A DNA stretch of 64,000 nt from a candidate division FCPU426 bacterium (GCA_963771075.1 CAVYSE010000018.1:198642-262641); one strand, 5' to 3'; counted from the first letter of the stretch, positions 20,819-54,751 are shown. Translations and numbers: made by a program. Notes: a model not told the origin generated them from the letters alone.

Positions 20819-20835
20819 ATTTTAAAAGGACTTTT

Positions 20836-21794: not shown

Positions 21795-21800
21795 CATTTT

Positions 21801-24178: not shown

Positions 24179-24218
24179 AAACAGGAAACCTTTGAAACTG
24201 AAAATTAGGAAAAAATAA

Positions 24219-25268: not shown

Positions 25269-25314
25269 AACATGTGTATCTGTTACCAACTAAAACTGCT
25301 TAAGGAACGATGAT

Positions 25315-25992
25315 ATGAACATTGATTTAAAAATGAATGAAACAAACCAAGCCTCAGTCCCGAATTCGGTTTACAGGTTTATTCCCATTCATCGGCTTTG
25401 GGAAATAATTGCCTCCAAAAAACTATATTTTTTAAGAAACACTAAATGGGAAGACCCGTTCGATGGTTATATAGCCGAACAGTGGTGTGAAAAGAATGGA
25501 AGATCCTATGAAAATTTTAGGAACAAGATTTATTTTTTATGCTGTACAACCGATAAACACATTGAGTTCTTTTGGAGGGCATATACACCAAATAAAGACG
25601 GAGTAAGGATTGAGATTTCTGTTTCTGAATTGTTAAGTTGTGCGCCAGGAATGAAGGCTCGCTTAATCCATTATGATAAAAGAGATAATCTTCAAGAAAT
25701 CATTTCGAAAGTAAAAAATGAAGCGTCATTGCTTACTGAATATTTTTTTTATAAAAGAGAAACATTTCAATATGAAAAGGAGCTTCGATTTTATTTTCGA
25801 AAAAAAGATCATTCTTCGGATGTTTTGGAGGTTCCGTTTGATCCGGCTAAAGTGCTTAAGAGTATTGTTTTTGATCCAAGAATGTCTAAACCTGTTTTCA
25901 AACTTCATGAAAAATTTATTGAACCTCATTTACCAAATGTCACCATATACCGCTCTAATATTTTTGATCCAAGGGGAACTTTCAGGTCATGA
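25315..25992 (+). CDS. DUF2971-like protein (hypothetical)
   Basis: …VYRFIPIHRLWEIIASKKLYFLRNTKWEDPFDG… resembles the DUF2971 N-terminal signature (recalled from memory, unverified). Confidence 0.4.
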   Translation: MNIDLKMNETNQASVPNSVYRFIPIHRLWEIIASKKLYFLRNTKWEDPFDGYIAEQWCEKNGRSYENFRNKIYFLCCTTDKHIEFFWRAYTPNKDGVRIEISVSELLSCAPGMKARLIHYDKRDNLQEIISKVKNEASLLTEYFFYKRETFQYEKELRFYFRKKDHSSDVLEVPFDPAKVLKSIVFDPRMSKPVFKLHEKFIEPHLPNVTIYRSNIFDPRGTFRS

Positions 25993-26195
25993 AAGACTTT
26001 CCCTTTTGGCGCGGTGCCATTTACAACGCTAAAACCCAGATTACACTTAAAGCTGTTGGGGAAGACCTCTCCAAATTCCAAAAACAATCCGGACTTTTCG
26101 TTGACGAGGAAGCCAAACTAACCGGCGACCAGCTGACCACCCTACGAAAACAGTATTCTGAAAAGATGAAAAAACTCGTTGTCGAAAGGATTTGA
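25989..26195 (+). CDS. small hypothetical protein (68 aa)
   Basis: ATGA overlap with upstream gene. Confidence 0.3.
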   Translation: MKDFPFWRGAIYNAKTQITLKAVGEDLSKFQKQSGLFVDEEAKLTGDQLTTLRKQYSEKMKKLVVERI

Positions 26196-26346
26196 AATGA
26201 ATGAACCAAGTTCTTTACCAACACAACAAATAGGGAAGCTTGGGGAATTACTTGTTCAATTGTAAACGCCGGTCCAAAAGTGTGACGGTCTGAGGGGCCA
26301 AAAAGGCGGTCGAAAAGTGTGACACTCCCCGAATATCCGGGAAGAT

Positions 26347-27904
26347 GTGGGGTTTTCAACGATGAAAACCACGCCACCGGAAGGAAAAGGAGTGTACAAA
26401 GACATGGACCAATGGACGGAAATCCGCAAGAAAATCCTGGTGGAAGGGGTCTCCAAGCGCCAGGTGATGGAAGAAGAAGGCATCCACTGGGAAACCCTCA
26501 AGAAAATACTCGCCCATAGCCAGCCGCCCGGCTACCAGATGAACCAGGAGAGGCCCCAGCCCAAGATTGGGCCCTTCCTGGGCCGAATCAAGCAAATCCT
26601 CCAGGACGATAAGCACATCCACAAAAAACAGCGCCATACCGCCAAGCGCATTTTCGAGCGCCTACGCAAGGAGGATGGCTACACCGGCGGCTATAGCCAG
26701 GTCAAAAAGGCCGTCCGGGGGATCAAACGAAGGAATAGCGAGGTGTTCGTGCCGTTGACGCACCGGCCCGGCGAGGCCCAGGTGGACTTTGGGCACGCCC
26801 TGGTCAAGCTCAACGGCGTGTTGGTGAAACGCCCCTACTTTGTGATGGCCTTGCCCTATTCGGACGCTTTCTTCGTGCAGATATTCGAGCGGGAAAGCAC
26901 GGAGTTCGTCTGGGAAGGCCACATCCGGGCCTTCAAGTATTTCGGTGGCGTACCCTGGCGGATCAGCTACGACAACGCCAAGACCCTCGTGAAGAAGTTG
27001 ATCGGGGTACACGAACGGGAATTGACGCGGGGTTTCCAGCAGTTGGTGAGCCACTATCTCTTCGACCACCACTTCTGCACCATACGCCGGGGCAACGAAA
27101 AGGGTGTGGTGGAAGGCGGGGTGAAATATGTGCGACTGAATTTCATGGTGCCGGTTCCGCAAGTGGGAAACTTGGAGGAACTAAACGAAAAATTGGTGGT
27201 GAACTGCCGTGAGGACTTGGAACGCAAATTGCGGGGTAAAGGACTTCCCAAGGGGCAACTTCTAGACGAGGATAAGGCCCATTTCAGGCCCTTGCCGGCC
27301 GCTGTTTTTGACGCCTGCATCAAGCAGTCCACCACGGCCACTTCCTTGTCCCTGGTGCGCTTCGACACCAACGACTATTCCGTGCCGACGGAATGGGCAC
27401 ACCATCCGGTAGTGGTGAAGGGATACATCGACCGGGTGGATGTCTATTACAGGGAAAAGCGGATTGCGACCCATGATCGTCTGTGGTGCAAGGAAGGCGT
27501 GGTCTTCAATCCGGTGCATTATTTGGCGATTTTGGAAGGGAAAACCGGGAGCCTTCGATCATGCCAGGCCCCTGGAAGACTGGAATCTGCCAGAGAATTT
27601 CGCCCTCCTGCGCCGCCGCATGAAAGCCAAGGAAAAGAGCCACGGTGAGGGAACACGGGAATTCATCAAGACGATGCGGCTTTTGGAAAAACATTCCATG
27701 GGCAGGCTCCACCGGGCGGTGAAGAAGGCCGTGGGGATGGAAATCTATACCCGCGACGCTGTCGCCCAATTGCTCTACTCCAGGGAAGATTTCAGGCTGA
27801 CCACCTTCAGCTTGGCCGGTCGTGAACACTTGCGACGAGTGCAGGTGGCTCGAACGGATCTCTCGGCCTACCGCGAACTGATGGCAGTGGGGGGTGAAGC
27901 GTGA
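26347..27904 (+). pseudogene. istA: IS21 transposase IstA, +1 frameshift in A4 run (27541-27544)
   Basis: N-terminal HTH + DDE region (…GEAQVDFGH…YSDAFFV…); frame 1 ends …HYLAILEGKTGSLRSC…*, frame 2 (27440..27904) continues …KGKPGAFDHARPLEDWNLPENFALLRR… typical IstA C-terminus; removing one A restores …LEGKPGAFD…. Confidence 0.75.
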
Positions 27905-28692
27905 GCACTTCCAAAAACACTCTCCTGCTGGAACATCACCTCAAGAAACTCAAACTGCCAACGATGCAGCGCGAGTACGACAAGATGGCCCAACTCTGCC
28001 GCACCGAGCGTAGCGACTATCCGCAGTACCTTCTCAAGCTGGCCGAGCTGGAACTTCTGGATCGGGAGCGCCGGGCCAAGGAGAGGCGCATCCGGGATGC
28101 TGGTTTTCCCGTGCTCAAGACTTTGGACACGTTCGATTTCAAGGCCCAGCCTTCGATCAACCAGGAATTGACCCGGGAACTCATGCGGGGAGAGTACATG
28201 GACAAAAAAGAAAACATCCTGCTGATCGGCAACTCCGGAACAGGTAAAACCCATTTGGCCACGGCCCTGGCCTTCCAGGCCTGTTGCCAGGGCCGGGCGG
28301 TGAAGTTTTTCTCTGTTACCGGTCTTGTGACGGAGCTTCTGGAGCGCCGTGAGGAAAAACAATTGGCCAAGTTCCATCGTCAGTTGGCCAGGCTCCACCT
28401 GATCGTCCTGGACGAGCTGGGTTATGTGCCATTCACCAAGGCGGGGGCCGAGCTGCTATTCGAGGTGGTCAGCAAGGCTTACGAGCGGACCAGCCTGCTG
28501 GTAACGACCAACCTTCCCTTCGAAAACTGGGTGGAAATCATGGGTTCGGAGAGGATGACGGGGGCTCTTATTGACCGTTTGACCCATCGGGTGCATATTT
28601 TGGAGGCCAACGGCCAAAGCTTTAGATTAACAGAATCAAAAAAACGGCTCGGCCGGGTTCCCCGGCCGAACAAAGACAAGAAGGATGGATAA
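27901..28692 (+). CDS. istB: IS21 helper ATPase IstB
   Basis: GTG start overlapping istA stop; Walker A …LIGNSGTGKTHLATALA…; …LIVLDELGYVPF…. Confidence 0.85.
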   Translation: MSTSKNTLLLEHHLKKLKLPTMQREYDKMAQLCRTERSDYPQYLLKLAELELLDRERRAKERRIRDAGFPVLKTLDTFDFKAQPSINQELTRELMRGEYMDKKENILLIGNSGTGKTHLATALAFQACCQGRAVKFFSVTGLVTELLERREEKQLAKFHRQLARLHLIVLDELGYVPFTKAGAELLFEVVSKAYERTSLLVTTNLPFENWVEIMGSERMTGALIDRLTHRVHILEANGQSFRLTESKKRLGRVPRPNKDKKDG

Positions 28693-28972
28693 AAGCTAAC
28701 CAACGACCATACACCCTAAAGGCGTATGGAAGGCGGGGGGTGTCACACTTTTGGATCGCCCACCGTCACACTTTTCGACCGGCGGGGACAGACTACGAAG
28801 GATAAAAACACAACAGAACCTAAGCCCTGTCCACAGGGCCTTTTTGCGTCCGGCAGGGAAGGGTGATCCCTCCCCTGCACCCCACCCCTCCTAAAGAAAA
28901 ACCAAAATTCTTATTACTCACTTTTGGTATAGTATTTATTGTGGATTAATCTTTAGGAGTAAGGGGATTGAA

Positions 28973-30175
28973 ATGGAAGATATTGCCAGTCCAAAAGACT
29001 TTTCAGAATACGAAAAAGAAGTCTCGGATAAGTTGGATGAATTTGGAAAAGGCCTTTCCGAAGAATTCTTTCAAGTTCTGAATAACTTGCTATTACATAG
29101 CTATCCCAAAAATCAAGAAAATGGGCTAAAAGCTTTCATGAGTATGTTGGGATTTGGCGCTTCCTTTGTTTTCGATTCCAATGCGATCCAGAGGGTTATT
29201 CGATATGAGTTGAAGGGTGGGAAATCTGCCGCCTTGTCCGCTATGCGGACAGGTTATGTAACCGCACTATCGCCGCCGAATATAGATTATGAAATCGCAA
29301 ATCACGCCGCAGAGATTGCCAAATATTGCGGTGTGGAACCAATAGATGTCCTTAATTTTTACCATGGCAAAATTAGACCATTTATCCAATTGATGGAAGT
29401 TTCGGACCAAGTTTTATACGAAAAAATTAAGTCTGGCATCAAGGACAAGGATGACGCTCCGTTTGTTGCCTTGGGTCTGGAAACCGAATCGATAGGCATT
29501 GTTACCGAGGATGGAGTTGTTAAAGATCAAGAAGGGGTAAAGACTTACCTCTTAGAGGACATCGCCAGGGTCCATGTACATTGTCGAAAAAGAGGAATGG
29601 TTATATTCCTAAGTATCTTAAATGTTATTGCGTTTGTTCTTTTTGTGAAAACAATCATGAGCTTTTTTGGGATGATTTTTCGTTTTGTAAGAAACAACCC
29701 TGGACTGATATTAGGAATTCTGGCGGGCGCAGGGTTAATTTATTTGTTGTTTAGAGAAGAAATTAATCAAAAAATAAAAGAGAATTTTGGCGAGAATTGG
29801 GAAAAAATAAAAGACCAAATGGGTCTTATTTGGAAAGATCTAAGCCCTTACTTGGGAGCGATACTTTTGCAAATTTGCCAAAGGATGCAGGAGACCAAGA
29901 AAGAGTTGGGGCAAATAACTGACGGAAAAACAGAACGGCTTGAATCCTTTCGAAACAGGCAATCTAACACTCTCGTTTCTCTGGACAAGTTGATTGAGCA
30001 AGTTTTATTGGCTCTAAAAAAGCCTTTGAGTTTACGAGAAATCCGAGAGGCGTTGAAATCGGTCGGCTTTAAACCGAGAGGCAAAAACACGATTTATTAC
30101 GAAGTCAAAAAGGCCTTGGTAATGAACCCAAGATTCATTCAGGATACAAATGGATGTTACCTAGTAAATACCTAA
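28973..30175 (+). CDS. hypothetical membrane protein (two central TM helices; possible C-terminal wHTH)
   Basis: 400-aa ORF in AT-rich DNA; stop 22 bp upstream of RM gene, co-oriented. Confidence 0.5.
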   Translation: MEDIASPKDFSEYEKEVSDKLDEFGKGLSEEFFQVLNNLLLHSYPKNQENGLKAFMSMLGFGASFVFDSNAIQRVIRYELKGGKSAALSAMRTGYVTALSPPNIDYEIANHAAEIAKYCGVEPIDVLNFYHGKIRPFIQLMEVSDQVLYEKIKSGIKDKDDAPFVALGLETESIGIVTEDGVVKDQEGVKTYLLEDIARVHVHCRKRGMVIFLSILNVIAFVLFVKTIMSFFGMIFRFVRNNPGLILGILAGAGLIYLLFREEINQKIKENFGENWEKIKDQMGLIWKDLSPYLGAILLQICQRMQETKKELGQITDGKTERLESFRNRQSNTLVSLDKLIEQVLLALKKPLSLREIREALKSVGFKPRGKNTIYYEVKKALVMNPRFIQDTNGCYLVNT

Positions 30176-30196
30176 ATTGATCTCGAAAGAATAAAA

Positions 30197-33100
30197 ATGA
30201 TACGTGGAGACCTTTTTTCTAAAGAGTTTTTGGTTGATGGAATTCGTGAGTTTCCGGAGTGGAATCAACTCAAAGCCGAAACTATTGCCGAGTTTAAAAC
30301 GGCTTTAATTGCCATCTTTTCTAAATTTCCAATTTCCAAAAGCCCAAATGAAGCCACCACTGAACGTGACCTAATTGAACCGATTCTAAAACAACTATCT
30401 TGGGTTGATTACCTTCCCCAACAAACCGCCGCTAAAAAAGGCCGTTCTGATGTTCCGGATTTTTTGTTATTTGCAAATAATGAGGATAAGGATAAAGCGA
30501 ACAAAGAAAATGAAGAATCTAGTCGTTATCGGCATGGTTTATCAATTTTAGAAGCAAAAGCTTGGGACATTTCCTTAGACAGAGGGATAGGCAAAGGAAA
30601 ATCCCAAGGTTCTGTCCCTTCCCATCAAATCCTCCGTTATATGAGTCGTGTGGAGATCCTATCTGAAAAGAAAATTAAATGGGGATTTTTAACAAACGGA
30701 AGGTTTTGGCGAATCTATTATCAAGATGCCAAGTCTCGGTCGGAAGAATTCCTTGAAATGGATTTGAAAGTAATTTTAGGCTTGGAAGGCGCAGGGCCTG
30801 AGTTATTTAATCAGGAGGACTTGTATAACCAAGATTGGCTTAAAGTTTTTTATATTCTTTTTGGGAAAGAATACTTTTTAAAACGGGATGTTGATAGAAA
30901 GTCATTCCATGATCGTGTTGTTGAGACTGCAAAGTATTGGGAAGAACAAGTATCCAAAGGTTTGAGCGATGTTGTTTTTAATATAGTTTTTCCTCTTTTG
31001 GCAGAAGGATTCTATTTGGGTTCAAAAAAAAGAAATTCTTCACCAAAACCAAATCTACAAGAAGTTCGTGATGGAACCCTAACAATTCTTTATCGCCTAT
31101 TATTCGTTTTTTATGCGGAAGATAGATCGTTATTACCTGTAAATGATACGCGTTATGTAAATTATGGGTTGAGGCAAAATATTCGCCAAGACATAGCGGA
31201 TAGAAAAGATAGGCAAGATACTTTCAGCGAAACCCAAACAAATTATTACCAAAGACTTAAAAATCTTTTTAGGGCTATAGATAAAGGGGACGCTTCAATT
31301 GGTCTTCCGCCTTATAACGGGGGCTTGTTTGATAATCTTCAAAATTCACTTATCGAAGAGGTTGAACTCTCGGATCATTTAATGGCTGATGTTATTGATA
31401 ATTTATCCAGGCATGAAGAAAACGGACAAAAGAAATGGATTAATTATCGGGACCTATCTGTGCAACATTTGGGGTCAATTTACGAACGGCTTCTCGCTTT
31501 TGAGTTAGTTCTTAACAAAGGAAAAGTTGAGGTGCGGCCTAGTATCTTTTCTAGAAAAACAAGCGGCGGTTACTATACTCCGGAGGTGTTGGTTCGATTA
31601 ATTTTGAGTAAGACGATAGGGCCAATTCTCGAAGAGAAAAAACAAAAATTCTTATTAAAGGCACAAGAGCTAGGAAAAATTAAATCCAACAAACAGAATA
31701 ATATAAAGGAACTTGAAGAACTTGATCCTGCTGAAAATATCTTAAAATTAAGATTTTGTGACCCTGCAATGGGAAGTGGGCATTTCCTAGTTTCTTTAGT
31801 GGACTTCCTTGCAGATTGCATTTTGGAAGCCACTGTTGAAGCTCAAAATGTTGTTGAGGAAGAATTGGAAGGCTTGAATTATGTTTCGCCCCTTCTCAAG
31901 GAAATTTCTGACATTCAAATCAAAATATCTGAAAAAGGGAAACGACAACACTGGACCATTTTTACAAGCCAATTAGATGACCGGCATATTATTCGGCGTA
32001 TGATCCTTAAACGTTGTGTTTATGGTATTGACAAAAACCCCATGGCCGTTGAACTGGCCAAAGTTTCTTTATGGTTACATACCTTTACAGTTGGTGCCCC
32101 ATTATCTTTCTTAGATCACCATTTGAAATGTGGGGATTCCTTGTTTGGAGAGTTTACTTTTGAATTAGAAGATTATTTAAGGTCGCGGGGTAGTTTAGTA
32201 ATTGATGAAGCGGTGAAAATTGCAAAAGAAGCTGCCCAAGAAATAAAGAACATCGAAGAAATATCAGATATTGACTTGATTGAGATTAAAAACTCCGAAG
32301 AGAAATTTAATGCGATTCGAAAAAGAGTTGATCCGATAAATAAATTTTATAGTTTTGTACATGCTGGACGTTGGATGGTTCGAGAAAACAGTGAAAACAA
32401 AATCCATTTTAACTCGATTTTGGACGGCCAATATGGTGATCCCATTGATGTGGCTATTTCAAAGGATTTGCCTAAAACTATAAAAGAACCCGAAGCTATT
32501 CAATTTTGGAATTCGGCTAGAAAATTAGCTAATGAAGAAAGATTTTTTAATTGGGAAATAGCTTATCCGAGGGTTTGGGATAAATGGGAAGATAAATTAC
32601 CAGTTGGTGGGTTTGATGCCGTAATTGGAAATCCCCCTTGGGATAGGATGAAATTTCAGCAAGTTGAGTGGTTTGAAACTCGAAATCTGGAAATTGCAAA
32701 GGCTACAAGAGCCTCGGAACGGGAAAAGTTGATTGAAAAACTTAAGAAGAACAAAGATCCACTTTGGAATGATTTTGTTCTTGCTGATACCCGAACAAAG
32801 GTTGCGGTAGATGTCGCTCGAAATGAAGGTCAGTATCCCCTTCTCTCGGGAGGTGATGTAAACATTTACAGTCTTTTTGTTGAGCGTTCCCATAGGCTGG
32901 TTAAGAATGATGGGATTGTCGGTTTGGTAATCCCATCGGGGATTGCTGGTGATAAAGGCTCATCCGAATTTTTTAAAAGTTTATCAACCTCAGGAAGACT
33001 GTCGGCATTATTTGATTTCGAAAATAAAAAAGTATTTTTTCCTGATATTCATGCTTCTTTTAAATTTCTTTGTTATGTGGCTGGTGGAAAAGATAGAAAA

Positions 33101-34264
33101 TTCGAAAATACATCGTGCGCTTATTTTCTTCATGATATTGACGAAATCAATGACCCTGAAAGATGTTTCAATTTAACTGCTGAAGACTTTTCCAGAGTCA
33201 ATCCCAATACTGGAACTGCGCCGATATTTAAATCAAAACGAGCAGCGATGTTAACCAAAGATATTTATAAGCGGAATGGCATCTTAAACGACCATAAAAC
33301 TGGAAGCGCATGGCCAATAAAATATTTCAACATGTTCCATATGACGAACGATTCAAACCTTTTTAAAACCCGAGAAGAACTCGAAAAAGATAATTTTTAC
33401 CTCGTGGACGAAGGGAAAATGAAAAAAGGGAAATCGGAATATTTGCCGCTTTACGAAGGCAAAATGGTTCAAGCTTATGATCACAGAGCAGCGGGAATTA
33501 AAGTTAACTCGGAAAATGTAAATCGACCAGCACAACCAGTTTCCACCTCTTTTGCAAATCATTCTGACCCTGAGTATTTCCCAACTCCACAATTTTGGGT
33601 TGAAGATAAAGAAGTTGATTCGAGATTAGCTGTTAATGAAAAAGATAAGCCTGGTTGGTATCTTTCTTTTAAAGACGTAACAGCTTCAACGAATATTAGG
33701 TCAATGATTTCTTCTTTTATACCGCGAAGGGCCGTGGGAAACACTTTACCCTTAATTTTATTTTCCGAAAATCGAAACGAATTGGGGCCTTTGCTTTTGG
33801 CGAATTTTAATTCTCTCCCGTTCGATTTTTTGTGTCGTCAAAAAATCCAGGGACAACATCTAAATTGGTACATAGTAGAACAAGTTCCGGTTATTTCTCC
33901 AACAAGGTTCGATGAGGTCATTGGAAAAAATAAAATCGGGGATCTAATTAGAAAATGCGTTTTAGAGTTAACTTACACTTCAAATGATATGAAAAAATTT
34001 GCTGAAGATATGGGTTTGATGCAGGGTCCATTTTCCTGGGATGAAGAAAAAAGGCGGCATTTGAAAGCAAGGATTGATGCGTTATTCTTTATGCTGTATG
34101 GCTTAGAAGATGATGACGTTAAATTTGTAATGGAAGACTTTTCAATAATTAAAAAAGAAGATACTGAACAGTTTAGCGGTAAATTCGTTACTAGAGATTT
34201 GGTTTTAGGATATATGAGAGCTTATAAGGCCGGTGACGTTGATACGAAGTTGAGTCTTAAGTAA
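30197..34264 (+). CDS. Type IIG/IIL restriction-modification fusion enzyme (MmeI/Eco57I-like): N-terminal PD-(D/E)xK endonuclease + gamma-class N6-adenine methyltransferase + TRD
   Basis: …SDVPDFLLFANN…LSILEAKAWD… (D…EAK nuclease core); MTase motif I …RFCDPAMGSGHFLVSL…; motif IV …DAVIGNPPWDRMKF… (NPPW); 1355 aa. Confidence 0.75.
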   Translation: MIRGDLFSKEFLVDGIREFPEWNQLKAETIAEFKTALIAIFSKFPISKSPNEATTERDLIEPILKQLSWVDYLPQQTAAKKGRSDVPDFLLFANNEDKDKANKENEESSRYRHGLSILEAKAWDISLDRGIGKGKSQGSVPSHQILRYMSRVEILSEKKIKWGFLTNGRFWRIYYQDAKSRSEEFLEMDLKVILGLEGAGPELFNQEDLYNQDWLKVFYILFGKEYFLKRDVDRKSFHDRVVETAKYWEEQVSKGLSDVVFNIVFPLLAEGFYLGSKKRNSSPKPNLQEVRDGTLTILYRLLFVFYAEDRSLLPVNDTRYVNYGLRQNIRQDIADRKDRQDTFSETQTNYYQRLKNLFRAIDKGDASIGLPPYNGGLFDNLQNSLIEEVELSDHLMADVIDNLSRHEENGQKKWINYRDLSVQHLGSIYERLLAFELVLNKGKVEVRPSIFSRKTSGGYYTPEVLVRLILSKTIGPILEEKKQKFLLKAQELGKIKSNKQNNIKELEELDPAENILKLRFCDPAMGSGHFLVSLVDFLADCILEATVEAQNVVEEELEGLNYVSPLLKEISDIQIKISEKGKRQHWTIFTSQLDDRHIIRRMILKRCVYGIDKNPMAVELAKVSLWLHTFTVGAPLSFLDHHLKCGDSLFGEFTFELEDYLRSRGSLVIDEAVKIAKEAAQEIKNIEEISDIDLIEIKNSEEKFNAIRKRVDPINKFYSFVHAGRWMVRENSENKIHFNSILDGQYGDPIDVAISKDLPKTIKEPEAIQFWNSARKLANEERFFNWEIAYPRVWDKWEDKLPVGGFDAVIGNPPWDRMKFQQVEWFETRNLEIAKATRASEREKLIEKLKKNKDPLWNDFVLADTRTKVAVDVARNEGQYPLLSGGDVNIYSLFVERSHRLVKNDGIVGLVIPSGIAGDKGSSEFFKSLSTSGRLSALFDFENKKVFFPDIHASFKFLCYVAGGKDRKFENTSCAYFLHDIDEINDPERCFNLTAEDFSRVNPNTGTAPIFKSKRAAMLTKDIYKRNGILNDHKTGSAWPIKYFNMFHMTNDSNLFKTREELEKDNFYLVDEGKMKKGKSEYLPLYEGKMVQAYDHRAAGIKVNSENVNRPAQPVSTSFANHSDPEYFPTPQFWVEDKEVDSRLAVNEKDKPGWYLSFKDVTASTNIRSMISSFIPRRAVGNTLPLILFSENRNELGPLLLANFNSLPFDFLCRQKIQGQHLNWYIVEQVPVISPTRFDEVIGKNKIGDLIRKCVLELTYTSNDMKKFAEDMGLMQGPFSWDEEKRRHLKARIDALFFMLYGLEDDDVKFVMEDFSIIKKEDTEQFSGKFVTRDLVLGYMRAYKAGDVDTKLSLK

Positions 34265-34384
34265 TAAATTCAAAATTATCAAATCAGCCCAGAGTGACCG
34301 ACATTTTCTTAAAAAACATCTTTTGCCTGCACATGGCCCTCCCAAAAAGGATGGTGTGCAACCACTGACAAACACTTACCGGGC

Positions 34385-34413
34385 GACTATTACGATAAAA
34401 TGGTCGAAATCCT
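34385..34413 (+). repeat. 29-bp direct repeat, copy 1 (GACTATTACGATAAAATGGTCGAAATCCT)
   Basis: 28/29 identical to copy at 35586-35614; the pair flanks the zraP-like gene. Confidence 0.85.
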
Positions 34414-34847
34414 GATTTCTGGCCTTCGGCCTGTTCAATTTCGACACGTAGCAACGTCTGCTTGAGGGCAGACGGCTACGAGACAGATTGTGGACCAGCA
34501 ATTGGAGGCAGAAGTCCATTAATCGCAAAATGGCTCCGCCAGCTATTCGACTTCTGCACAATTCACCTTTGCTTGAGAGCAAAGGGAATAGAAGGCGGGG
34601 ATCAGGCTGGCTTATGTTTTGAATGAGATTTTTAAGTAAGGATTTAACCACGAAGGAGCGGAGGCGCGGAGACACAGAGTAAAGAAGGAGAGAACCACCC
34701 CCCCTTAAACAGCCGCCTTGATTTTCATGACTGGTGACTGTTATTTGCTCCTTTATCACGTCATATACAGCGACACTTTCTCAATCTACCCCCGTCATAA
34801 CCTCGTAAGTTTTTAATCTTATAAGCAAAAATCTTGGAGGTTTTTTC

Positions 34848-35480
34848 ATGACGAAGTTACTCAAAAACATAGGTCTGGGCGTTCTCGCCTCAGGTCTTTT
34901 TTTTGGTTCGGTTCTGGCTGTTTATGCGGATGATGCCGCAACGAAGGATGATAACGGCACAGCCCAAAAGGGCGACCATGGATGGAACAAAAAGGGTTGT
35001 GGGGATATGTGGAAGAAAAAGTTCGGTTTAACCGACGACCAATCCCAAAAACTCAAGGATCTTTTCAAGAAACAACGCGAAGATACCCAGGCCCTGGCCG
35101 ATCAAGTCAAGGTAGACACAGACACACTGAGATTGAAGGTGGATACCAAGGCTTCTGATGATGATATCAAAGCTCTCTTAGACACCCTCTCGGCTGATAA
35201 AAAGCAATTGAAGGCCAAGCGTGAAACCTTTAGCGACCAGTTCAAATCCATCCTGACACCCACCCAGCAAGCCAAATTCCTACTCGAAAAAAGGGGACAT
35301 TGGGGCCATGGAAAGTTTGGTTGTCCCGGCGAATTGAAAGGCCAGGGCGGTCCTGATGGCAAAAAGGGAACTGGCGTGAAACATAAAGGACACGGGAAGA
35401 AGAAAGGCGCTTCTACCGCTACCTCCACACCCACCGATAACGACGCATCCGCCACCCCGGCTTCTGGTGACACCAACTAA
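34848..35480 (+). CDS. Spy/CpxP/ZraP-family periplasmic protein with His/Gly-rich tail
   Basis: GGAGG RBS; signal peptide; LTDDQSQKLKDLFKKQRED… and LTPTQQAKFLLEK… (LTxxQ motifs); C-terminal …HKGHGKKKG…; terminator at 35505-35541. Confidence 0.55.
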   Translation: MTKLLKNIGLGVLASGLFFGSVLAVYADDAATKDDNGTAQKGDHGWNKKGCGDMWKKKFGLTDDQSQKLKDLFKKQREDTQALADQVKVDTDTLRLKVDTKASDDDIKALLDTLSADKKQLKAKRETFSDQFKSILTPTQQAKFLLEKRGHWGHGKFGCPGELKGQGGPDGKKGTGVKHKGHGKKKGASTATSTPTDNDASATPASGDTN

Positions 35481-35504
35481 TCCATCTTTTTAATAAGCAG
35501 GTCA

Positions 35505-35541
35505 AAGCCTTCCAGCTCCCCCGCTGGAAGGCTTTTTTTTG
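35505..35541 (+). terminator. rho-independent terminator
   Basis: AAGCCTTCCAGC-TCCCCCG-CTGGAAGGCTT followed by TTTTTTTTG. Confidence 0.7.
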
Positions 35542-35585
35542 CCAATTTTTCTTCCAATGCCCTACAAAAGACCCTTATGCAAGGG

Positions 35586-35614
35586 GACTATTACGATAAA
35601 ATGGTCAAAATCCT
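35586..35614 (+). repeat. 29-bp direct repeat, copy 2 (GACTATTACGATAAAATGGTCAAAATCCT)
   Basis: See copy 1. Confidence 0.85.
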
Positions 35615-36087
35615 TCTCAACAAGCTTTTCAAGTAAATGAGAAAAGGGGGCCAGGCCAACAGATAACACTTTAGGATGTTCACCTTTAATTACGTCCTTT
35701 TTCGGGTATCGCGTACATCACCCCGCCATCAACATCAGCTGACAGTCCGCCCATGAACCAGAACTCTACGAGTACGGTTCAGGGCGCGGCAGCCCTTCGA
35801 GAGCCTCAGGGCAGGTCGACAGGGAAGGCCCCAAAAGACAGACGGCCCCAATTGTCCGAAGCAATTGGGATCACCAAAACTTGCCTCTCACCTTGTGGGT
35901 TCGAGGCAGGAGACAGTCCGTAGCCCTTCGATGGTTCGATGCACTACGTTTACTCACCACTCAGGGCGGGTTGGTTTTTGGCTATTGGAGATTGGGAAAA
36001 AAACAAGAATAGAGAAGGTGCTCCGGGCAAGTGAAGTTAGGGGTTAGAAGTTTTAGACAATGCTAACAACCAAAAGCCAACATGGTT

Positions 36088-36492
36088 TCAAACGCGCCAA
36101 ATTTCCAAAAACTCCGATGGGGATACGATGCGGGTTTTGCCGGCCGATCCATGGGGAAAATCCTTTTTATTTCCAGTGACCAGGTAATCCGTTTTCGAGC
36201 CCAGGGCCACTTCCGCGAAAGCCTCATCCGTTGGGTCCGGAAGCCGTTTTTTGAGGGGAAGGGACGAGCCTAAGAGTCCCTTGGTCTCAAGAACGGCCAA
36301 TAGGCGCGCTGTTTCGGCGGGATCAAACGCGAATTTCGGCCGGGCTAAGACCAGGTGATATTCCAGGAGAATCCGGACGTCATAACAAACCTGGAAACGC
36401 CCGGCGACCGCCATTTGAATGACCGTTCCGGAAGGGCCGCTGGGTTTGATCAGCCCTGAAACCAAAATATTAGTGTCGAGTACGGCCTTCAA
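36088..36492 (-). CDS. PIN-domain toxin (VapC-like, TIGR00305-type)
   Basis: MKAVLDTNILVSGL… N-terminal PIN motif; …DYLVTGNKKDF… C-terminal acidic residue; TTG start in ORF track. Confidence 0.7.
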   Translation of the reverse strand: MKAVLDTNILVSGLIKPSGPSGTVIQMAVAGRFQVCYDVRILLEYHLVLARPKFAFDPAETARLLAVLETKGLLGSSLPLKKRLPDPTDEAFAEVALGSKTDYLVTGNKKDFPHGSAGKTRIVSPSEFLEIWRV

Positions 36493-36614
36493 CCGCGAAG
36501 GCTCCGGCGCACCTTGCGGATTTCATCCTGGATCTCATGATCGGTCATCAAAGTCAAACGCGGGTGTTTTGAACGTCCACTCGCCAAAGAAGCGTGGCGA
36601 TTTTTAGATGACAA
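36489..36614 (-). CDS. putative small antitoxin upstream of PIN (overlapping stop/start)
   Basis: Hand translation of minus strand: MLSSKNRHASLASGRSKHPRLTLMTDHEIQDEIRKVRRSLRG*, stop overlaps PIN start. Confidence 0.3.
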   Translation of the reverse strand: MSSKNRHASLASGRSKHPRLTLMTDHEIQDEIRKVRRSLRG

Positions 36615-36760
36615 CATCGCGTTTAACAAGCCAATTTGATAAACGGCTCGGCTTTTAATCTAATAGACTTAATTGAGGTAAAAAATAAGGACATTAAGGC
36701 TTATATAAATATAAATAAGTGAATAAAAACCTTATATTTAGGCTATAATAAAAGACATTT

Positions 36761-37930
36761 ATGAGGACATTTAAAGAGACACATCCGTGGATAAAATTCG
36801 ATTTCGACCTAAAAAAGGCCGATTCTGGGCTTTGGCTTGCCCTGGGAGAGGCCGATTCCAAGTGTGAGCATATCGCCGGGGTACCTTTAAGGCCGCAAAC
36901 CGCCAAAGAATTACTAACTTTGTATCTGGCCCGTGGCATCAGGGCCACGACTGCTATTGAGGGGAACACCCTTTCCGAAGCAGAGGTTCTTAGCCGTATC
37001 GAGGGTAAAAAGGTATTGCCCCCTTCCAAGGAATACCTGGGCATTGAGATAGACAACATCCTTCGCGTTTATAACCGGATGGTCGAAGGCATTATCCAAA
37101 AGAAAATTGGCTTACCCGATGCGGAAACCATCTGCAGTTTCAACCGCGAAGTACTGAAAGATCTTCAACTTCAAAAAGATGTCGTGCCTGGCACGATCCG
37201 CAAACACGGGGTAGGCGTCGGGCTTTATCGGGGCGCGCCGCAGGAGGATTGCGAATACCTTCTTGAGCGTCTTTGCGAATGGATAAGGTCAAAAGATTTT
37301 CCCGCGTCTCGATACCCGGGTGTGGTCGGCGGGGTTATCACCGCGGTGGTCGCTCACATTTATTTTGAATGGATTCATCCCTTTGGCGACGGTAACGGCC
37401 GGACGGGCCGTTTAATTGAACTTAAAATTCTTTTGGAGTCAGGTATTCCGCAACCAGCGGCCCATCTTTTAAGTAATCATTACAACGCGACCAGGACTGA
37501 ATATTACCGGCAGTTGGAAAATGCCAGCGTCAATGGCGGCGATATCCTTCCGTTTCTTCAATATGCGGTTCAGGGTTTTGTGGACGGTCTTCGAGAACAA
37601 TTAAAAACTATACGAAAACAACAATTTGATGTTACTTGGAACAATTACATTTTTCGAAAATTCAAAGACAAAGAAGGTAAAAACGACAAAAGGAAACTTC
37701 TGTTAATGTTGGCGCTCTCCAATGTTGAAGGAGAAATCTCAACCCGGGAAATAACCCGCTTAAATGCTGAGTTGGCTTTGGCATATCGAGATAAGACAAG
37801 TAAAACATTAACCAGGGATTTAAACGACCTCAAGGAAATGGATTTGATTGAATCAAAGCGCGGGAGCGTAAAAGCCAAGAGAGAAACAATTTTGGCTTTC
37901 CTGCCCCTTCGAAAAGAATGGTTCTTATGA
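36761..37930 (+). CDS. Fic/Doc family protein (AMPylase-type) with C-terminal wHTH-like region
   Basis: Canonical Fic motif …HPFGDGNGRTGRL…. Confidence 0.85.
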   Translation: MRTFKETHPWIKFDFDLKKADSGLWLALGEADSKCEHIAGVPLRPQTAKELLTLYLARGIRATTAIEGNTLSEAEVLSRIEGKKVLPPSKEYLGIEIDNILRVYNRMVEGIIQKKIGLPDAETICSFNREVLKDLQLQKDVVPGTIRKHGVGVGLYRGAPQEDCEYLLERLCEWIRSKDFPASRYPGVVGGVITAVVAHIYFEWIHPFGDGNGRTGRLIELKILLESGIPQPAAHLLSNHYNATRTEYYRQLENASVNGGDILPFLQYAVQGFVDGLREQLKTIRKQQFDVTWNNYIFRKFKDKEGKNDKRKLLLMLALSNVEGEISTREITRLNAELALAYRDKTSKTLTRDLNDLKEMDLIESKRGSVKAKRETILAFLPLRKEWFL

Positions 37931-38382
37931 AAATCCCCTATGTGATCGACAACCAAAATAACCGCATGGCCGACATATTAAGCGCGCTCCTGACGGAACA
38001 CCGAGACCGGTCCTTGGATGTGGCGACCGCTTAATTTACGGTTGGCGGTTTTGGTTTGTTGAAAGAAGGTTTGTCCCATTTTGGAAGTTTTCGTCCTGAC
38101 TTCTTTTGTTTTAGGGTTAGTCATTAATTATTTATATTTTCTTTGCGCTTTGCTTATCCCACGGATTGTTTTATAGGATCAAGTGACAGTCCCGATGATC
38201 CCCCCGATAAGTCCCGACAGTCCCTCATCAAACAAAAACTGTTGTCTTTTTGTCCGATTGAAAGGTTCAACCAACCCGCCGGCCTAAAAAAATAAACCCC
38301 TGTTCATTTTTTGTTTTTCTTCTCTTTTCCCCGGGTGTTTACTAAGCCCATCTACCACGCAATTCTATTTTTGGAGGTCCCC

Positions 38383-41300
38383 ATGACTTCAGCCGCGCCC
38401 AGCCAGCCGCAGGTCGAAACTCCCGTCCCGCCGGATATCCGAATCTTCCAAATAGGGGACTTGTTCGTTCCCGATTGGAACCCCAGGAAAACCATCATCC
38501 CGTGGGATTTGGCCAACCTGGTCGCCTTTATGAATTCGGGCGGGAAACCGCCCCGGATCACCGTTTGGAAAGGGGAAGATAAACTCTCTCGGGCCGAGGC
38601 CACAAGCCAAGGCCCAGGGTTGAGAAGTGCCGGTTCCATAGGGGAAGAACAGGCCTCTCGGGCCGAGGCCACAAGCCAAGGCCCAGGGTTGAGAAGTGCC
38701 GGTTCCATAGGGGAAGAACAGGCCTCTCGGGCCGAGGCCACAAGCCAAGGCCCAGGGTTGAGAAGTGCCGGTTCCATAGGGGAAGAACAGGCCTCTCGGG
38801 CCGAGGCCACAAGCCAAGGCCCAGGGTTGAGAAGTGCCGGTTCCAAAGGGGAACCGGCCCAATGGGCAATTATCGAAGGCCAAATGCGTTTACTGGCCGC
38901 CCAACAGCTGGGCTGGACCCACATGGAAGCCGAGGTGGTGGATTGCACCCTGATCGATGCCAAGACCAGGGCCTTTACCTCGAACAACCAAAATAAGCCC
39001 TTATGGCTCGATACGGATCTGGGCATTACGATGCTTTTTTACGAATTAAAGAACCAGGGTGTCACCCAAGAGGCTTTGGCAGGTAGGTTGGGTAGGTCAG
39101 AATCCAAGGTTAGCAGGGCTATAAAGATCACAAATGCCCTCACTCAAGTTTCCAAAGACCTAATCTACCAAAATCTTCAAAAAACCCTTAAAAATGGAGT
39201 TGCGCCTCGCAAGTCGAAAAATAAGGGTTTTTTGATTACCGAAAACCACCTATTGGCTTTGGCCGATTTGGAGGACCCTGCCAAGGTTGAAAAGGCCCTC
39301 GGGGTGGTTTTGGATGACTACCTGACTGAGGCCCAAACCAAAAACCTTATCAAAAAGATCAAGGCGGGGAATACACCGGTAACCATTGACTCCGATAAGC
39401 CGGTAAAAATCGCCGTTGAAACCCCCAAGGCCGATGTGGGGGTACCCAAGGTAGATTCCCCAGCCCAAACGGCCAATTCCCCATCGGAGCTGGCGCCGTT
39501 ACCCGTTGATCCTTCGGACCAAGGGCTTCAACATGCCCCTGACCCGAGGTCTCAAACCGAAGGACACGGTTTGGGTGTACCCACCCCTAAACAAGGGATG
39601 GGTACAGGTTCGGCCCAGCCCGCCCCCGAAGTTACCCCCCAAAACCCTTCCGCCGAAGGTAGTGACTCTACTCCTCTTATAAAAACCCCAGAAGAGAAGG
39701 ATAAAGAAGATGTCCAACAAGCGCCCCCCACCCCTCCAAAATCCGGCTTCTGGAATGCCCTGAAACAAGTCTGGCAGGGCTTTGCCGGGGCAGGTCTTAA
39801 AGCCTTCTTTGCTTCTGGCCCGAAGCCAGCCGATTCCACTATGGAATCGGCACAGTCATACCAAGCCCCCAATGGGCTTGGTACAGCCCAACCTTCATCA
39901 CCCGTTTTGAGAACGGGTGATGGGGCGAATCCCGGGCCTCAGCTTGGGGTTTCGGCCCAGACGCAAGCCAAGGCCATCGAATCGGGTGACCCAGTTTCTA
40001 AACAGACTGATGCCCCAGGATCTAAAACAAATCCTGGGGAAGTTTCATTCTTTTGGGGCACAATGGCTGGCATCCCCTGGATCAAGGCCATTCGGGCAAA
40101 GATCAAATCAGGGCAAGACCTCACCCTTTGGGAAAAGCTGTTTCTGGTGGCGGCCTTCTTTGGGCGGATCTTGCATTGGACCTGGCATAAGACATGGCCC
40201 CGGACCAAGTGGTTCTTCGGGTTGGTTTGGCAATACATGAAAATAGGCTTGAACGCCACCCTAAGGTTCTTGGGAGAAGTGGTGGGCAAGCCCGCCAAAA
40301 AAGTGATCCAGGGCGTGGTGGGTATCGTCTTGGTGTTGGGTCTCGCTTATGGGCTCTATCTATTCTTCTTCCACCCGGCGGGGCTAAGGGGCTTGTTGAG
40401 CCGGACCGCCTCCGGGGCAATCCATTGGGTAGGGTCTTGGGTAAACCCTTGGGAAGGGGATACGCACACCGATTCAACTAAGGAATCGGTGCAATCATAC
40501 CAAGCCCCCAATGGGCTTGGTACAGCCCAACCTTCATCACCCGTTTTGAGAACGGGTAATGGGGCGAATCCCGGGACTCAGCTTGGGGCTTCGGCCCAGA
40601 CGCAAGTTTCGAGACAAGCCTTGGCAGTACCCATATCTAAACCAGATATGGGTATGCCGGTGCCGACTGCGGTACCTACCGTAGTTCCCACGCCTGAGAT
40701 TGTTAAAACTAAACACCTAAAACTCAAAACTTCTAAATCTTTGAAAAAGGCCGTTCCGGCGGCTGTGGTTTCAAATCAAAACCCAACACCTAAAACCGAG
40801 AACACGGCCGCATCATCGGCCCTACCCGGCGCACCCGCCACGGGGGAAGAGGCGGCGTGGGTGGCCGAGCTCATCCCCGCTTTTCACCCGCCCTTCCTGG
40901 TGAAGCCTTTGGATCTTCAGCCCGACCCAACCATTTCCCCCGTCATGGTCCAGAAAAGGCTTTCCGAAATCCAAGACCCCGAAAGGTTCCGTGTTTACGT
41001 GGGGCATGACCGCCAAACGGTGAAATCCATGAACGTGGACGATGGCGGAATGGACCTATTCTTCAACGGCTCCTTCGGCGGGCTTTTGGGCGACTCATCC
41101 AGCTTTCGGTTCTTCTGGGAGGACGTGCAGGGCATCCGCCTGGCGACGGTGGAGGTTTCGGGCGACAAGCCGCAAACGCTCTGCTTTTGCGCGCTGGAAG
41201 TGAAGACCAAGAAAAAAATGGCGGCCTTCGAGTGCGATCCGGGGGACGTGGCCCATTTGGTGTCGGCCCTGGCGGCGCAGTTCAAAAGCTCCACGAAAAG

Positions 41301-41682
41301 GGAGGTATCGGTGGCGCCCCTGCCTTACCTGAACCAGGGTATGTGGCTGGGCGGGCAGAACCAGGTGGATGGGATGTGGTGGGAAAGCCCGGCGGGGCGG
41401 TCGCAAGAGGTGAAACTGCGCTTTACCCCGGCGGACTGGCAAAGGCCTACGACCGGCGGCGGAATCCGCCTGGGGGATTACCTTTGGAGCCTGGGCGTGA
41501 ACCAGGATAACCAAACCGGGAAGGATGAATTTCTCAGGCAGTTGGGCGGAATGGCCTCGGGACCGGCGACCCTATTCGTGGTGGGCCCGGAGGATTGGCG
41601 CAAGGCCCGGAATGCCGAGACCGGCCCCGAAAACGATCCATTCAATCCTCCCCGCAGGGCGGTGCGGCTGGCGGCGCCGTGA
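38383..41682 (+). CDS. large ParB-like (ParB/Srx N-domain + HTH) membrane-associated protein with internal tandem repeats and long Pro-rich/unknown C-terminal region
   Basis: GGAGG RBS then ATG 38383; …FVPDWNPRKTIIPWDLANLVAFMNSGGKPPRITVW… (ParB box I-like) and …AIIEGQMRLLAAQQLGW… (GERRxRA-like box II); HTH …GVTQEALAGRLGRSESKVSRAI…; two hydrophobic helices (~res 590-700). Confidence 0.5.
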   Translation: MTSAAPSQPQVETPVPPDIRIFQIGDLFVPDWNPRKTIIPWDLANLVAFMNSGGKPPRITVWKGEDKLSRAEATSQGPGLRSAGSIGEEQASRAEATSQGPGLRSAGSIGEEQASRAEATSQGPGLRSAGSIGEEQASRAEATSQGPGLRSAGSKGEPAQWAIIEGQMRLLAAQQLGWTHMEAEVVDCTLIDAKTRAFTSNNQNKPLWLDTDLGITMLFYELKNQGVTQEALAGRLGRSESKVSRAIKITNALTQVSKDLIYQNLQKTLKNGVAPRKSKNKGFLITENHLLALADLEDPAKVEKALGVVLDDYLTEAQTKNLIKKIKAGNTPVTIDSDKPVKIAVETPKADVGVPKVDSPAQTANSPSELAPLPVDPSDQGLQHAPDPRSQTEGHGLGVPTPKQGMGTGSAQPAPEVTPQNPSAEGSDSTPLIKTPEEKDKEDVQQAPPTPPKSGFWNALKQVWQGFAGAGLKAFFASGPKPADSTMESAQSYQAPNGLGTAQPSSPVLRTGDGANPGPQLGVSAQTQAKAIESGDPVSKQTDAPGSKTNPGEVSFFWGTMAGIPWIKAIRAKIKSGQDLTLWEKLFLVAAFFGRILHWTWHKTWPRTKWFFGLVWQYMKIGLNATLRFLGEVVGKPAKKVIQGVVGIVLVLGLAYGLYLFFFHPAGLRGLLSRTASGAIHWVGSWVNPWEGDTHTDSTKESVQSYQAPNGLGTAQPSSPVLRTGNGANPGTQLGASAQTQVSRQALAVPISKPDMGMPVPTAVPTVVPTPEIVKTKHLKLKTSKSLKKAVPAAVVSNQNPTPKTENTAASSALPGAPATGEEAAWVAELIPAFHPPFLVKPLDLQPDPTISPVMVQKRLSEIQDPERFRVYVGHDRQTVKSMNVDDGGMDLFFNGSFGGLLGDSSSFRFFWEDVQGIRLATVEVSGDKPQTLCFCALEVKTKKKMAAFECDPGDVAHLVSALAAQFKSSTKREVSVAPLPYLNQGMWLGGQNQVDGMWWESPAGRSQEVKLRFTPADWQRPTTGGGIRLGDYLWSLGVNQDNQTGKDEFLRQLGGMASGPATLFVVGPEDWRKARNAETGPENDPFNPPRRAVRLAAP
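38586..38855 (+). repeat. perfect in-frame tandem repeat, 69 bp x ~3.9 (encodes SRAEATSQGPGLRSAGSIGEEQA x4)
   Basis: Identical 69-nt units starting 38586, 38655, 38724, 38793; last unit diverges at its 3' end. Confidence 0.9.
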
Positions 41683-41724
41683 GGGAGGCGGCGGCCTGGA
41701 ATAGAACGATAAACGAACGGTGAT

Positions 41725-42047
41725 AAATTTTTGAATGCTTATCCGAACAGCGCCCGCTAGTTACGCGAAAACGGCTTTTCAATATTCCCCCCTTCCCCCA
41801 TGCCCCATTGGAAAGAATGACATGGGGCATGGGGACGTCCCCATTTACATTTTTTAATACTTAATGGTGAAATGGGGGTGAAAAGGGGGGAAGGGGGGTA
41901 TTAGCCGTTACGGTGGAATTGGCGGAAAAGCTAACTCCCCCTTTTTCCCCCTCTTTCAGAGGGGGAGAACAGTGTATGGCCTGCGGATGAATACAAAAGT
42001 CCATTAACCAACGGGCGCTGTTCGGATAAGCATGAATTTTTGAAATT
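41725..42047. repeat. MITE-like palindromic element: 22-bp perfect terminal inverted repeats (…TTATCCGAACAGCGCCCG / CGGGCGCTGTTCGGATAAGCAT…) enclosing nested internal palindromes
   Basis: IR-L 41725-41756, IR-R 42012-42047; internal CCCCATGCCCCA…TGGGGCATGGGG 12-bp stem and AATATTCCCCCCTTCCCC…GGGGAAGGGGGGTATTAG arms. Confidence 0.5.
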
Positions 42048-54600: not shown

Positions 54601-54751
54601 TCCCCTTTCATTCGGCCCCCCCTTGGCCTTTTTAAAAGGAATTAAAGGCGAAACCCACCTTCGGGAAGTTTCAGCCGTCTTTTCAAATAAATCCCCTGGT
54701 TTTGCGATAAAATAAAGCGAGTTGTTTCCCTTCATCCACCGTTGGAGCCTT

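Follow-up and report, generated by a model that had tools for sequence, protein, structure and literature searches.

What does a protein that begins like a ParB do with a membrane anchor and a large C-terminal domain, and why does its gene lie beside a defence island? The question is raised by the gene at 38383-41682 of a 64,000-nucleotide stretch from a candidate division FCPU426 bacterium (GCA_963771075.1 CAVYSE010000018.1:198642-262641), hereafter the window. A preliminary description, made from the sequence alone, had pointed to an atypical ParB-like protein with membrane helices, and had linked it to mobile-element maintenance or defence. The protein proves to have a new ParB-fold architecture, in which a ParB N-domain (ParB_N) and a helix-turn-helix (HTH) are followed by a tether, a transmembrane (TM) helix, a second tether, a predicted PH-like domain and a predicted PDZ-like domain, and it belongs to a lineage-specific, unannotated family. 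The best explanation of the whole, which we hold at slightly under an even chance, is a membrane-anchored DNA binder or regulator of the ParB/Noc type, bitopic with its N-terminus inside and its C-terminus outside (N-in/C-out), and carrying a PH/PDZ envelope module.

The features that make up the gene are as follows, with residue numbers (aa) and the evidence in brackets; pLDDT is the AlphaFold predicted local distance difference test.

38383..41682 (+): intact coding sequence of the 1099-aa membrane-anchored ParB/Noc-fold protein (open reading frame, GGAGG, L009 allele)
38413..38580 (+): first part of the ParB N-domain, aa 11-66, with the Box I equivalent PDWNPRK, N standing for the ParB Q (pLDDT 83-96, profile alignment to Noc)
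38584..38858 (-): four tandem copies of the ~68-nt repeat R1, read as 23-aa units, aa 68-157 (Tandem Repeats Finder; covariance model, 46-79 bits)
38851..39387 (+): second part of the ParB N-domain, HTH and helical bundle, aa 157-335 (pLDDT >90, PDB profile, Foldseek)
39177..39235 (+): H2, a 59-nt hairpin within the HTH coding region, encoding QKTLKN...KNKGFLI (inverted repeat and RNA fold)
39388..40047 (+): disordered linker 1, aa 336-555, partly R1 copies (pLDDT <50, covariance model matches)
40126..40284 (+): long amphipathic, weakly hydrophobic helix, aa 582-634 (AlphaFold helix, pLDDT 76-87)
40288..40371 (+): strong TM helix, aa 636-663 (Kyte-Doolittle and AlphaFold helix)
40846..41295 (+): PH-like beta-sandwich and C-terminal helix, aa 822-971 (AlphaFold pLDDT >90, Foldseek)
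41305..41679 (+): PDZ-like domain, aa 975-1099 (family profile and weak PDB matches)

An intact gene with two alleles

The gene is a single intact coding sequence on the forward strand, from an ATG at 38383 to a stop codon ending at 41682, with a GGAGG at 38371-38375, 7 nt 5′ of the ATG; the longest version of the open reading frame (ORF) starts at a TTG at 38311. At 1099 aa, the product is indeed atypically large for a ParB. The concern that two genes might have been merged is answered by the intact ORF and by at least 31 homologues of at least 550 aa in which a ParB-like N-terminus and the C-terminal domain occur together. A second allele (P0001, from the strain variant L009) is 99% identical at the nucleotide level and its frame is also open, the main difference being three 69-nt units in place of four, such that repeat number shifts by whole in-frame units. 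The two alleles differ at 20 codons, 8 synonymous and 12 non-synonymous, with 11 of the 20 inside one repeat copy; a ratio of non-synonymous to synonymous substitution rates was set aside, as 20 codon differences are too few.

A ParB/Noc module with a substituted nucleotide site

Searched as a single sequence against Pfam and NCBIfam, the protein yielded only matches under the curated cut-offs, with HTH_ParB at 19.4 bits (cut-off 22.6), parB_part at 26 bits (58) and the NCBIfam Noc model TIGR04285 at 34.2 bits (315). A profile built from seven family N-termini (A3) matched Noc in the PDB at E=3e-21 and ParB/Spo0J at 4e-18 to 6e-13, over positions 12-179 and 199-245, which span the N-domain, the HTH and the following helix. 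Foldseek with the full-length AlphaFold model returned Noc 7nfu at E=3e-10 (target-normalised TM-score 0.59), together with ParB 6sdk, 7bnr and 6t1f and KorB 8qa9 (E=4e-5), the range being E=3e-10 to 5e-5. With an N-domain and then a ParB-type HTH, the protein is assigned by profile and predicted model to the ParB-CTPase fold and the ParB-Noc superfamily, and the ParB/Srx-type N-domain and HTH proposed at the outset are upheld by both kinds of search.

The motifs of the nucleotide site are recognisable by position and largely altered in content. A HMMER alignment sets FQPR, GERRWRA and ENLQRE of Noc against WNPR, GQMRLLA and SNNQNK here (family consensus nPR, GqmRllA and sNnqne), the Box II and Box III equivalents both lying in the aa 157-335 part. 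The box that the preliminary description compared to GERRxRA has the sequence GQMRLLA and retains one arginine, with E changed to Q, the first R to M and the third R to L. Box II varies across the family, with GQMR, GQRR, GKRR, GHRR, GExR and GDHR all represented. Structures of the Myxococcus xanthus ParB hydrolysis mutants Q52A and E93A were among the matches, and the equivalent positions here are N and Q. The aligned protein lacks the canonical residues of a CTP-hydrolysing ParB or Noc (Box I Q, GERRxRA, ENLQRE); because Box I Q has become N, GERR has become GQMR and ENLQRE has become SNNQNK, the N-domain most likely serves as a dimerisation or gating module that does not hydrolyse CTP, and we infer that it may bind nucleotide only weakly.

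The signs of a partition protein are absent. The ParA-binding motif LG(R/K)GL is missing at the N-terminus (MTSAAPSQPQVETPVPPD), and a parS-like site, looked for at the suggestion of the preliminary description, was not found, no canonical parS matching within 3 mismatches anywhere in the 64-kb window; an adjacent parA and the C-terminal dimerisation domain of a partition ParB are likewise lacking. The hallmarks of Noc are also missing: TIGR04285 falls below its cut-off, there is no N-terminal amphipathic membrane helix, and the window holds 6 matches resembling a Noc-binding site, against 9.4 expected by chance.

Tethers and the membrane anchor

The folded N-terminal module is joined to the rest of the protein through two stretches, residues 338-554 and 673-812, in which pLDDT falls below 50 in the AlphaFold model, and which bear out the Pro/Gln-rich low complexity described earlier. 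Between them, the two hydrophobic helices first described are reduced to one strong TM helix: Kyte-Doolittle hydropathy peaks at 2.46 at about aa 641-663, the sole strongly hydrophobic stretch, whereas the helix at 582-634 is amphipathic and weakly hydrophobic, bears several charged residues and remains under the hydropathy cut-off of 1.2. Among 40 family members with one strong TM, K and R together average 3.5 in the 20 residues before it and 2.0 after it, and because the side before the TM is the richer, an N-in/C-out orientation is weakly favoured by sequence.

Two further lines on topology were discarded. A conserved Cys pair, as a disulfide sign of a periplasmic site, was rejected, the first Cys being lost in several members, and standalone C-terminal domains with signal peptides proved uninformative, as the short entries look like fragments. 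A basic Ser/Asn-rich motif (for instance SKLKHKTSNS…LLTPNS or LQTPNY) recurs in post-TM linkers, at aa ~775-800 in the window protein and in many relatives, and may be a third DNA-level repeat.

Predicted PH-like and PDZ-like domains at the C-terminus

The C-terminal domain of ~270 aa, previously described as having no recognised motif, is a real folded unit that no Pfam model covers, and it divides into a predicted PH-like domain followed by a predicted PDZ-like domain. Modelled by AlphaFold from a six-sequence alignment, the C-terminal 278 aa are confidently folded (pLDDT 82.7, predicted TM-score 0.77). The best Foldseek PDB matches of the first half are the Sin1 PH domain, the FAK FERM F3 domain and PTB domains, at a probability of 0.9-1.0 but with E>=1e-3. 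For the second half, family-profile positions 173-245 match multi-PDZ proteins (E=1e-14 to 1e-6; PDZ identity confirmed by Pfam), and the weak PDB sequence matches (E 0.15-2) are nearly all PDZ domains. The window copy of the C-terminal domain is the most divergent within the family, and its PDZ-like part contains a disordered insert specific to the lineage (aa 1010-1025, 41410-41457).

H2, a conserved hairpin inside the HTH coding region

H2 consists of a 14-bp outer stem (TCAAAAAACCCTTA / TAAGGGTTTTTTGA), A-rich internal loops and an inner stem of 5-7 bp, with an RNA fold of -26.6 kcal/mol (z=-5.6). Seven homologous genes were compared, with N-domain identities of only 35-70%. Six of them have the same outer stem down to its synonymous sites, and the copy at L061 has two 3′-arm changes, while all seven pairs of the inner stem (7/7) show compensatory changes, the loop peptide varies freely, and 0 of 500 shuffles reach the covariation score. 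The left arm has been lost at L003. With a covariance model, every motif-carrying family gene yields exactly one H2, and across about 290 kb no copy lies anywhere else. Protein similarity between subfamilies, read off the alignment, rises from ~38% just before H2 to ~67% just after it. H2 is a candidate cognate binding site, recombination junction or RNA element; the parS of Bacillus subtilis, which lies inside spo0J, provides a precedent for the first of these.

R1, an in-frame two-hairpin repeat

The repeats that the preliminary description had set aside form a real array of 69 bp x3.9, and their nature as a genome-wide element had escaped it. Tandem Repeats Finder places the array at 38586-38853, with a period of 69, 3.9 copies and 99% matches. 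In the ParB N-domain it fills a loop that connects two beta strands, and it is disordered in the model (pLDDT about 35). The homologue P0005 has a single R1 unit at this site, 95% identical in DNA though the proteins are only ~44% identical, and P0002 and P0003 lack it. Read as its reverse complement, the unit also matches homologous genes and further stretches of the ParB-like gene, and an exact-pattern scan of metagenomes found 50 loci with R1. From 26 aligned copies, a consensus of ~68 nt was obtained (GCCGRTTCCNCTNNGGAAYCGGCAC-AACCAAACC-N-GGGCCTCGGCTTGAGGCCTCGGCCC), which forms two stem-loops; 96% of cells in the alignment are paired, compensatory changes occur at 9 of 15 pairs, and the covariation score is reached by 0 of 500 shuffles and collapses in slid controls. 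Neither R1 nor H2 matched Rfam over 38000-42000, where the only matches were weak miRNA models on a palindrome 3′ of the gene. A CRISPR-like reading of the 69-nt arrays was rejected, as conservation and structure extend into the ‘spacer’ part.

A covariance model gives 15 R1 matches in the window (4 in the array, about 6 in the two tethers and 2 outside the gene) and 60 in 38 related loci. Beyond the array, the copies in the gene are:

39472-39527 (+, weak), 39534-39603 (-), 39829-39877 (+) and 39900-39965 (+): R1 copies in linker 1 (covariance model)
39830..39967 (+): left copy of an R1-derived 138-bp direct repeat that flanks the membrane module (94% identical to 40469-40606)
40469..40606 (+): right copy of the 138-bp direct repeat (R1 matches at 40468-40516 and 40539-40604)

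In total, the ParB-like gene holds about ten R1 copies or fragments, amounting to roughly 630 nt or about 19% of its length. The roughly 200 of 1099 residues encoded in this way are not ancestral protein, and are accommodated by the disordered tethers and by a single surface loop of the ParB fold; part of the unusual length and “low complexity” of the protein comes from this in-frame repeat. Each orientation of R1 is read in one frame (AGSPMEPAQPNRGPRLEASAQG forward, AEATSQGPGLRSAGSIGE reverse), and R1 also lies in frame in DnaE (L016, between PHP and the polymerase core), an FtsX-type permease (L017), an M23 peptidase (L018), a DUF6782 peptidase (L045) and further ParB-like genes; an IMS/UmuC-type polymerase may carry it at its N-terminus (L015). 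DnaE is normally the product of an essential gene. Tandem or adjacent R1 copies occur at L028, L036, L037 and L046, and the two copies outside the gene in the window (18796-18861 and 35847-35914) are apparently intergenic, one lying 220 nt after a tRNA-Glu and the other between the LTXXQ and Fic genes.

These properties recall Rickettsia palindromic elements (RPEs), short palindromic elements that lie in frame inside unrelated coding genes without breaking them (PMC10969869). The 69-bp unit is RPE-like in being short, hairpin-forming, multi-copy and in frame in unrelated genes, a likeness of analogy, with homology not claimed. R1 differs in its length (about 68 nt against about 150 bp), in having two covarying stem-loops, in occurring in both orientations and in tandem arrays, and in its hosts, which are uncultured soil and peat bacteria (with one homologue in a candidate division FCPU426 metagenome-assembled genome); R1 has no Rfam family match, and no transposase partner was identified for it.

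Family, distribution and module exchange

An exhaustive hidden Markov model search with the C-terminal domain gave 239 cluster representatives at E<1e-3, 93 of them at E<1e-30. Most relatives are 580-940 aa long, and the domain is nearly always C-terminal. Among the 63 members of at least 550 aa, 31 have ParB_N and HTH and 26 have the HTH/helical part only, some of which may be truncated; this distribution suggests that the HTH is the constant element of the family. When subfamily-specific search patterns were run against 185,579 species-representative genomes, the only match was the candidate division FCPU426 metagenome-assembled genome, and the remaining family members come from soil and peat metagenomes.

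Modules appear to be shuffled within the family by comparison of its sequences: P0021 joins a window-type C-terminal half to a different N-terminus, and P0004 has a window-type membrane module with other ends. At L004, a 5′-truncated paralogue (312-908, minus strand), 71% identical to aa 653-887 of the window protein, stands head-to-head with P0006 (1318-4284, plus strand). An R1 copy lies at their junction (1339-1394), and because it sits at a paralogue junction, a repeat-mediated rearrangement between paralogues is suggested. At L061, the ParB_N part (2236-2592, 118 aa) and the remainder (P0007, 2692-4656, 654 aa) were called as separate ORFs, and the gene would be either frameshifted or genuinely split.

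Flanks of the gene and the defence island

The gene is flanked by a Fic gene (36761-37930), directly after which it lies, as first described, and by a GDSL-like gene. Its immediate flanks hold the following elements:

38238..38276 (+): conserved upstream block AAAAACTGTTGTCTTTTTGTCCGATTGAAAGGTTCAACC, candidate promoter or operator (near-identical block 5′ of the P0005 gene, L001)
41829..41844 (+): terminator-like hairpin and then a T-run, 3′ of the stop codon (consensus scan only)

The promoter or operator role of the first block is a candidate function inferred only from its sequence conservation, and a block nearer the ATG is common to L006. Between the ParB-like gene and the next lie 490 bp, which hold the terminator-like hairpin and an element resembling a miniature inverted-repeat transposable element (41735-42033), in which 29-nt terminal inverted repeats (93% complementary) surround 241 nt; its interior has G-run/C-run palindromes (41868-41958) with weak miRNA-model matches on both strands. 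Upstream, a solo copy of the 25-nt motif GGTYAGTCATYAATTATTWATATTT lies at 38115-38139, 245 nt before the ParB-like gene. An inverted pair of the same motif (22343-22367 and 23336-23360, minus strand) flanks an IS200-like Y1 transposase gene (22403-23344, 313 aa). Zero copies are expected by chance, and the layout resembles that of a REP-associated tyrosine transposase with its repetitive extragenic palindromes (REPs); the motif is unrelated to R1 in sequence.

The strain variant L009 (99% identical) matches the window only over 37977-41783, keeping the gene and ~400 bp upstream, and not the Fic side. As L009 shares only this interval, the gene lies outside the variable island, which by this comparison ends ~400 bp 5′ of the gene, its edge lying at about 37977. 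PADLOC assigned the ParB-like protein to 0 families at E<=1e-3, and its neighbours to SoFic, type IIG restriction-modification (R-M) and PDC-S31. No conserved neighbour and no ParA were found across eight homologous loci, the neighbours differing at every locus and the chromosomal settings being unrelated; homologues are often near toxin-antitoxin genes. No relatives were found in IMG/VR viral contigs or PLSDB plasmids. The suggested link of the gene to mobile-element maintenance or defence is not supported, given the absence of a PADLOC match and of a canonical parS in the window, a position outside the variable island, and the lack of a conserved partner or of viral and plasmid relatives.

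The defence island itself is a low-GC (37-47%) region at 18502-37977 that begins at a tRNA-Glu(CTC) (18502-18576) and includes:

20342-20818: HEPN
23630-24178: Mrr-like
24219-25268: TIR-like or deoxyribosyltransferase-like gene
25315-25992: PDC-S31/DUF2971
26347-28692: IS21 istA/istB
28973-30175: PIN-like
30197-34264: type IIG R-M, 1355 aa
34848-35480: LTXXQ
36761-37930: SoFic

No integrase was identified among the island ORFs scanned. A 32-nt direct repeat (94% identical; 34382-34413 and 35583-35614) brackets the LTXXQ gene, and a short ORF at 37930-38035 (MKIPYVIDNQNNRMADILSALLTEHRDRSLDVATA*) overlaps the end of the Fic gene and resembles the remaining N-terminal part of a larger gene that was truncated at the edge of the island. 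Elsewhere in the window, three very large ORFs (5185-9168, 54722-58777 and 58929-62579; 1216-1351 aa) carry long Pro/Thr-rich 12-18-nt periodic repeats and a strong negative GC skew, and the latter two have a common 266-nt 3′ end (58508-58773 / 62310-62575) that is 83% identical.

Comparison with known systems

From the ParB N-domain through the HTH to the helices after it, the protein is homologous to Noc, ParB and Spo0J (profile E=3e-21, Foldseek E=3e-10), and it further resembles Noc in combining DNA binding with membrane association. It departs from Noc in its mid-protein integral TM helix, where Noc has an N-terminal amphipathic helix, and from both Noc and ParB in its lack of either C-terminal dimerisation domain, in the large substitution of Box I, II and III residues, and in the absence from the window of Noc-binding or parS consensus sites above chance. 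Unlike ParB, it has no adjoining ParA gene, here or at the homologous genes examined. KorB, VirB and BisD, which likewise use the ParB fold and an HTH outside partition, have been described as CTP-dependent regulators in a survey of ParB-fold fusions in which the words ‘transmembrane’ and ‘PDZ’ do not appear (10.1101/2025.10.10.680097). They differ from the present protein in being soluble and of canonical domain order, and all of them lack both a TM anchor and a PH/PDZ module.

Bitopic one-component regulators of the ToxR/CadC type have a DNA-binding domain in the cytoplasm and a sensor outside it, joined by a single TM helix, and GspC has the order TM, beta-sandwich and PDZ. The protein, with its predicted topology, would follow the same architectural logic as the former, and its C-terminal half the order of the latter. 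The DNA-binding domain is a ParB HTH here and a winged helix in ToxR/CadC, with no sequence relationship detected.

Proposed function and alternatives

In the arrangement that we favour, the cytoplasmic N-terminal third would form a ParB/Noc module of ParB N-domain, HTH and helical bundle, with the ParB C-terminal dimerisation domain replaced by a disordered tether, a membrane anchor, a second tether and the PH-like and PDZ-like module. The protein would be bitopic, its N-terminus cytoplasmic and its C-terminus outside, such that the PH/PDZ module would face the envelope and bind a peptide or envelope ligand. The ParB/HTH module, with its N-domain as a non-hydrolysing dimerisation or gating unit, would hold a specific DNA site at the membrane, for which the H2 palindrome in the gene's own HTH-coding region would be the best candidate cognate cis site. 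It would act either as a transmembrane regulator in the manner of ToxR or, like Noc, as a tether between DNA and membrane, and not in partition or defence.

Several observations weigh against this arrangement. The PH-like assignment carries weak Foldseek E-values (>=1e-3), Pfam PDZ models gave no match at E<=1 to the window protein itself, the two alleles differ at only 20 codons (12 of them non-synonymous), mostly in a repeat copy, and H2 may just as well be a recombination junction or an RNA structure. On topology, the positive-inside bias is modest, and helix 582-634 could be a second membrane segment, forming a helical hairpin with 636-663 that would leave both ends cytoplasmic; such a protein would be a Noc-like tether or scaffold whose PH/PDZ module recruits cytoplasmic partners. 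We consider this hairpin possible, if rather unlikely. AlphaFold gives two consecutive long helices, many members have two hydrophobic peaks ~50 residues apart, relatives with multi-TM modules appear four-segment, which would place the C-terminus inside, Noc is the closest structural relative, and a Lys-rich stretch (KTKHLKLKTSKSLKK) occurs in the segment after the TM. The charges and low hydropathy of the amphipathic first helix, however, speak against its insertion, and the segment between the helices, being the most K/R-rich, would face outward, contrary to the positive-inside rule.

Two further explanations were weighed. A ParB-like nuclease or CTPase serving the adjacent island, in mobile-element maintenance or in defence together with Fic, would accord with a gene that adjoins SoFic, type IIG R-M, PDC-S31, HEPN and PIN genes and whose homologues often lie near toxin-antitoxin genes; given the lack of a PADLOC match, of a conserved neighbour in eight homologous loci and of viral or plasmid relatives, and the retention in L009 of the gene and its 400-bp upstream region, not the Fic side, we judge this very improbable. 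Scarcely more credible is a decaying or non-functional gene whose frame has stayed open by chance while repeats build up, as might be read from the R1 copies (four of about ten within a folded domain), the degenerate nucleotide-site motifs, the divergent C-terminal domain with its extra insert, and the truncated or split paralogues (the L004 fragment and L061). Against decay stand a 3.3-kb ORF that is open in two alleles, a copy number that varies by whole 69-nt in-frame units, and three folded modules that are all predicted with high confidence; moreover, because R1 sits in frame in DnaE, its insertion need not mean decay.

Implications

The spread of the family and the behaviour of R1 may be parts of one picture, which we regard as doubtful when both parts must hold together. 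An uncultured soil lineage may have expanded a transmembrane ParB-fold family with H2 inside each HTH-coding region, where it may serve as a cognate loading or operator site, or as a junction that shuffles N- and C-terminal modules between paralogues. In the same genomes, R1 may actively build and resize protein tethers, may be tolerated inside the ParB N-domain fold and DnaE, and may mark the junctions of paralogue rearrangements. Natural alleles with 0, 1, 3 or 4 R1 copies at one site of known fold make insertion tolerance directly testable, and R1 would be a second, independent in-frame palindromic element of the Rickettsia style, here in a candidate phylum. H2, for its part, is a clean and unexplained covarying cis element. 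ParB-fold proteins are currently seen as soluble, CTP-gated DNA clamps; if the proposed arrangement is true, the fold, with ParB/HTH joined to a membrane anchor and a PH/PDZ module, would gain a part in DNA binding coupled to the envelope, in a family in which the nucleotide site is degenerate in many members and the N-domain appears to be missing from some.

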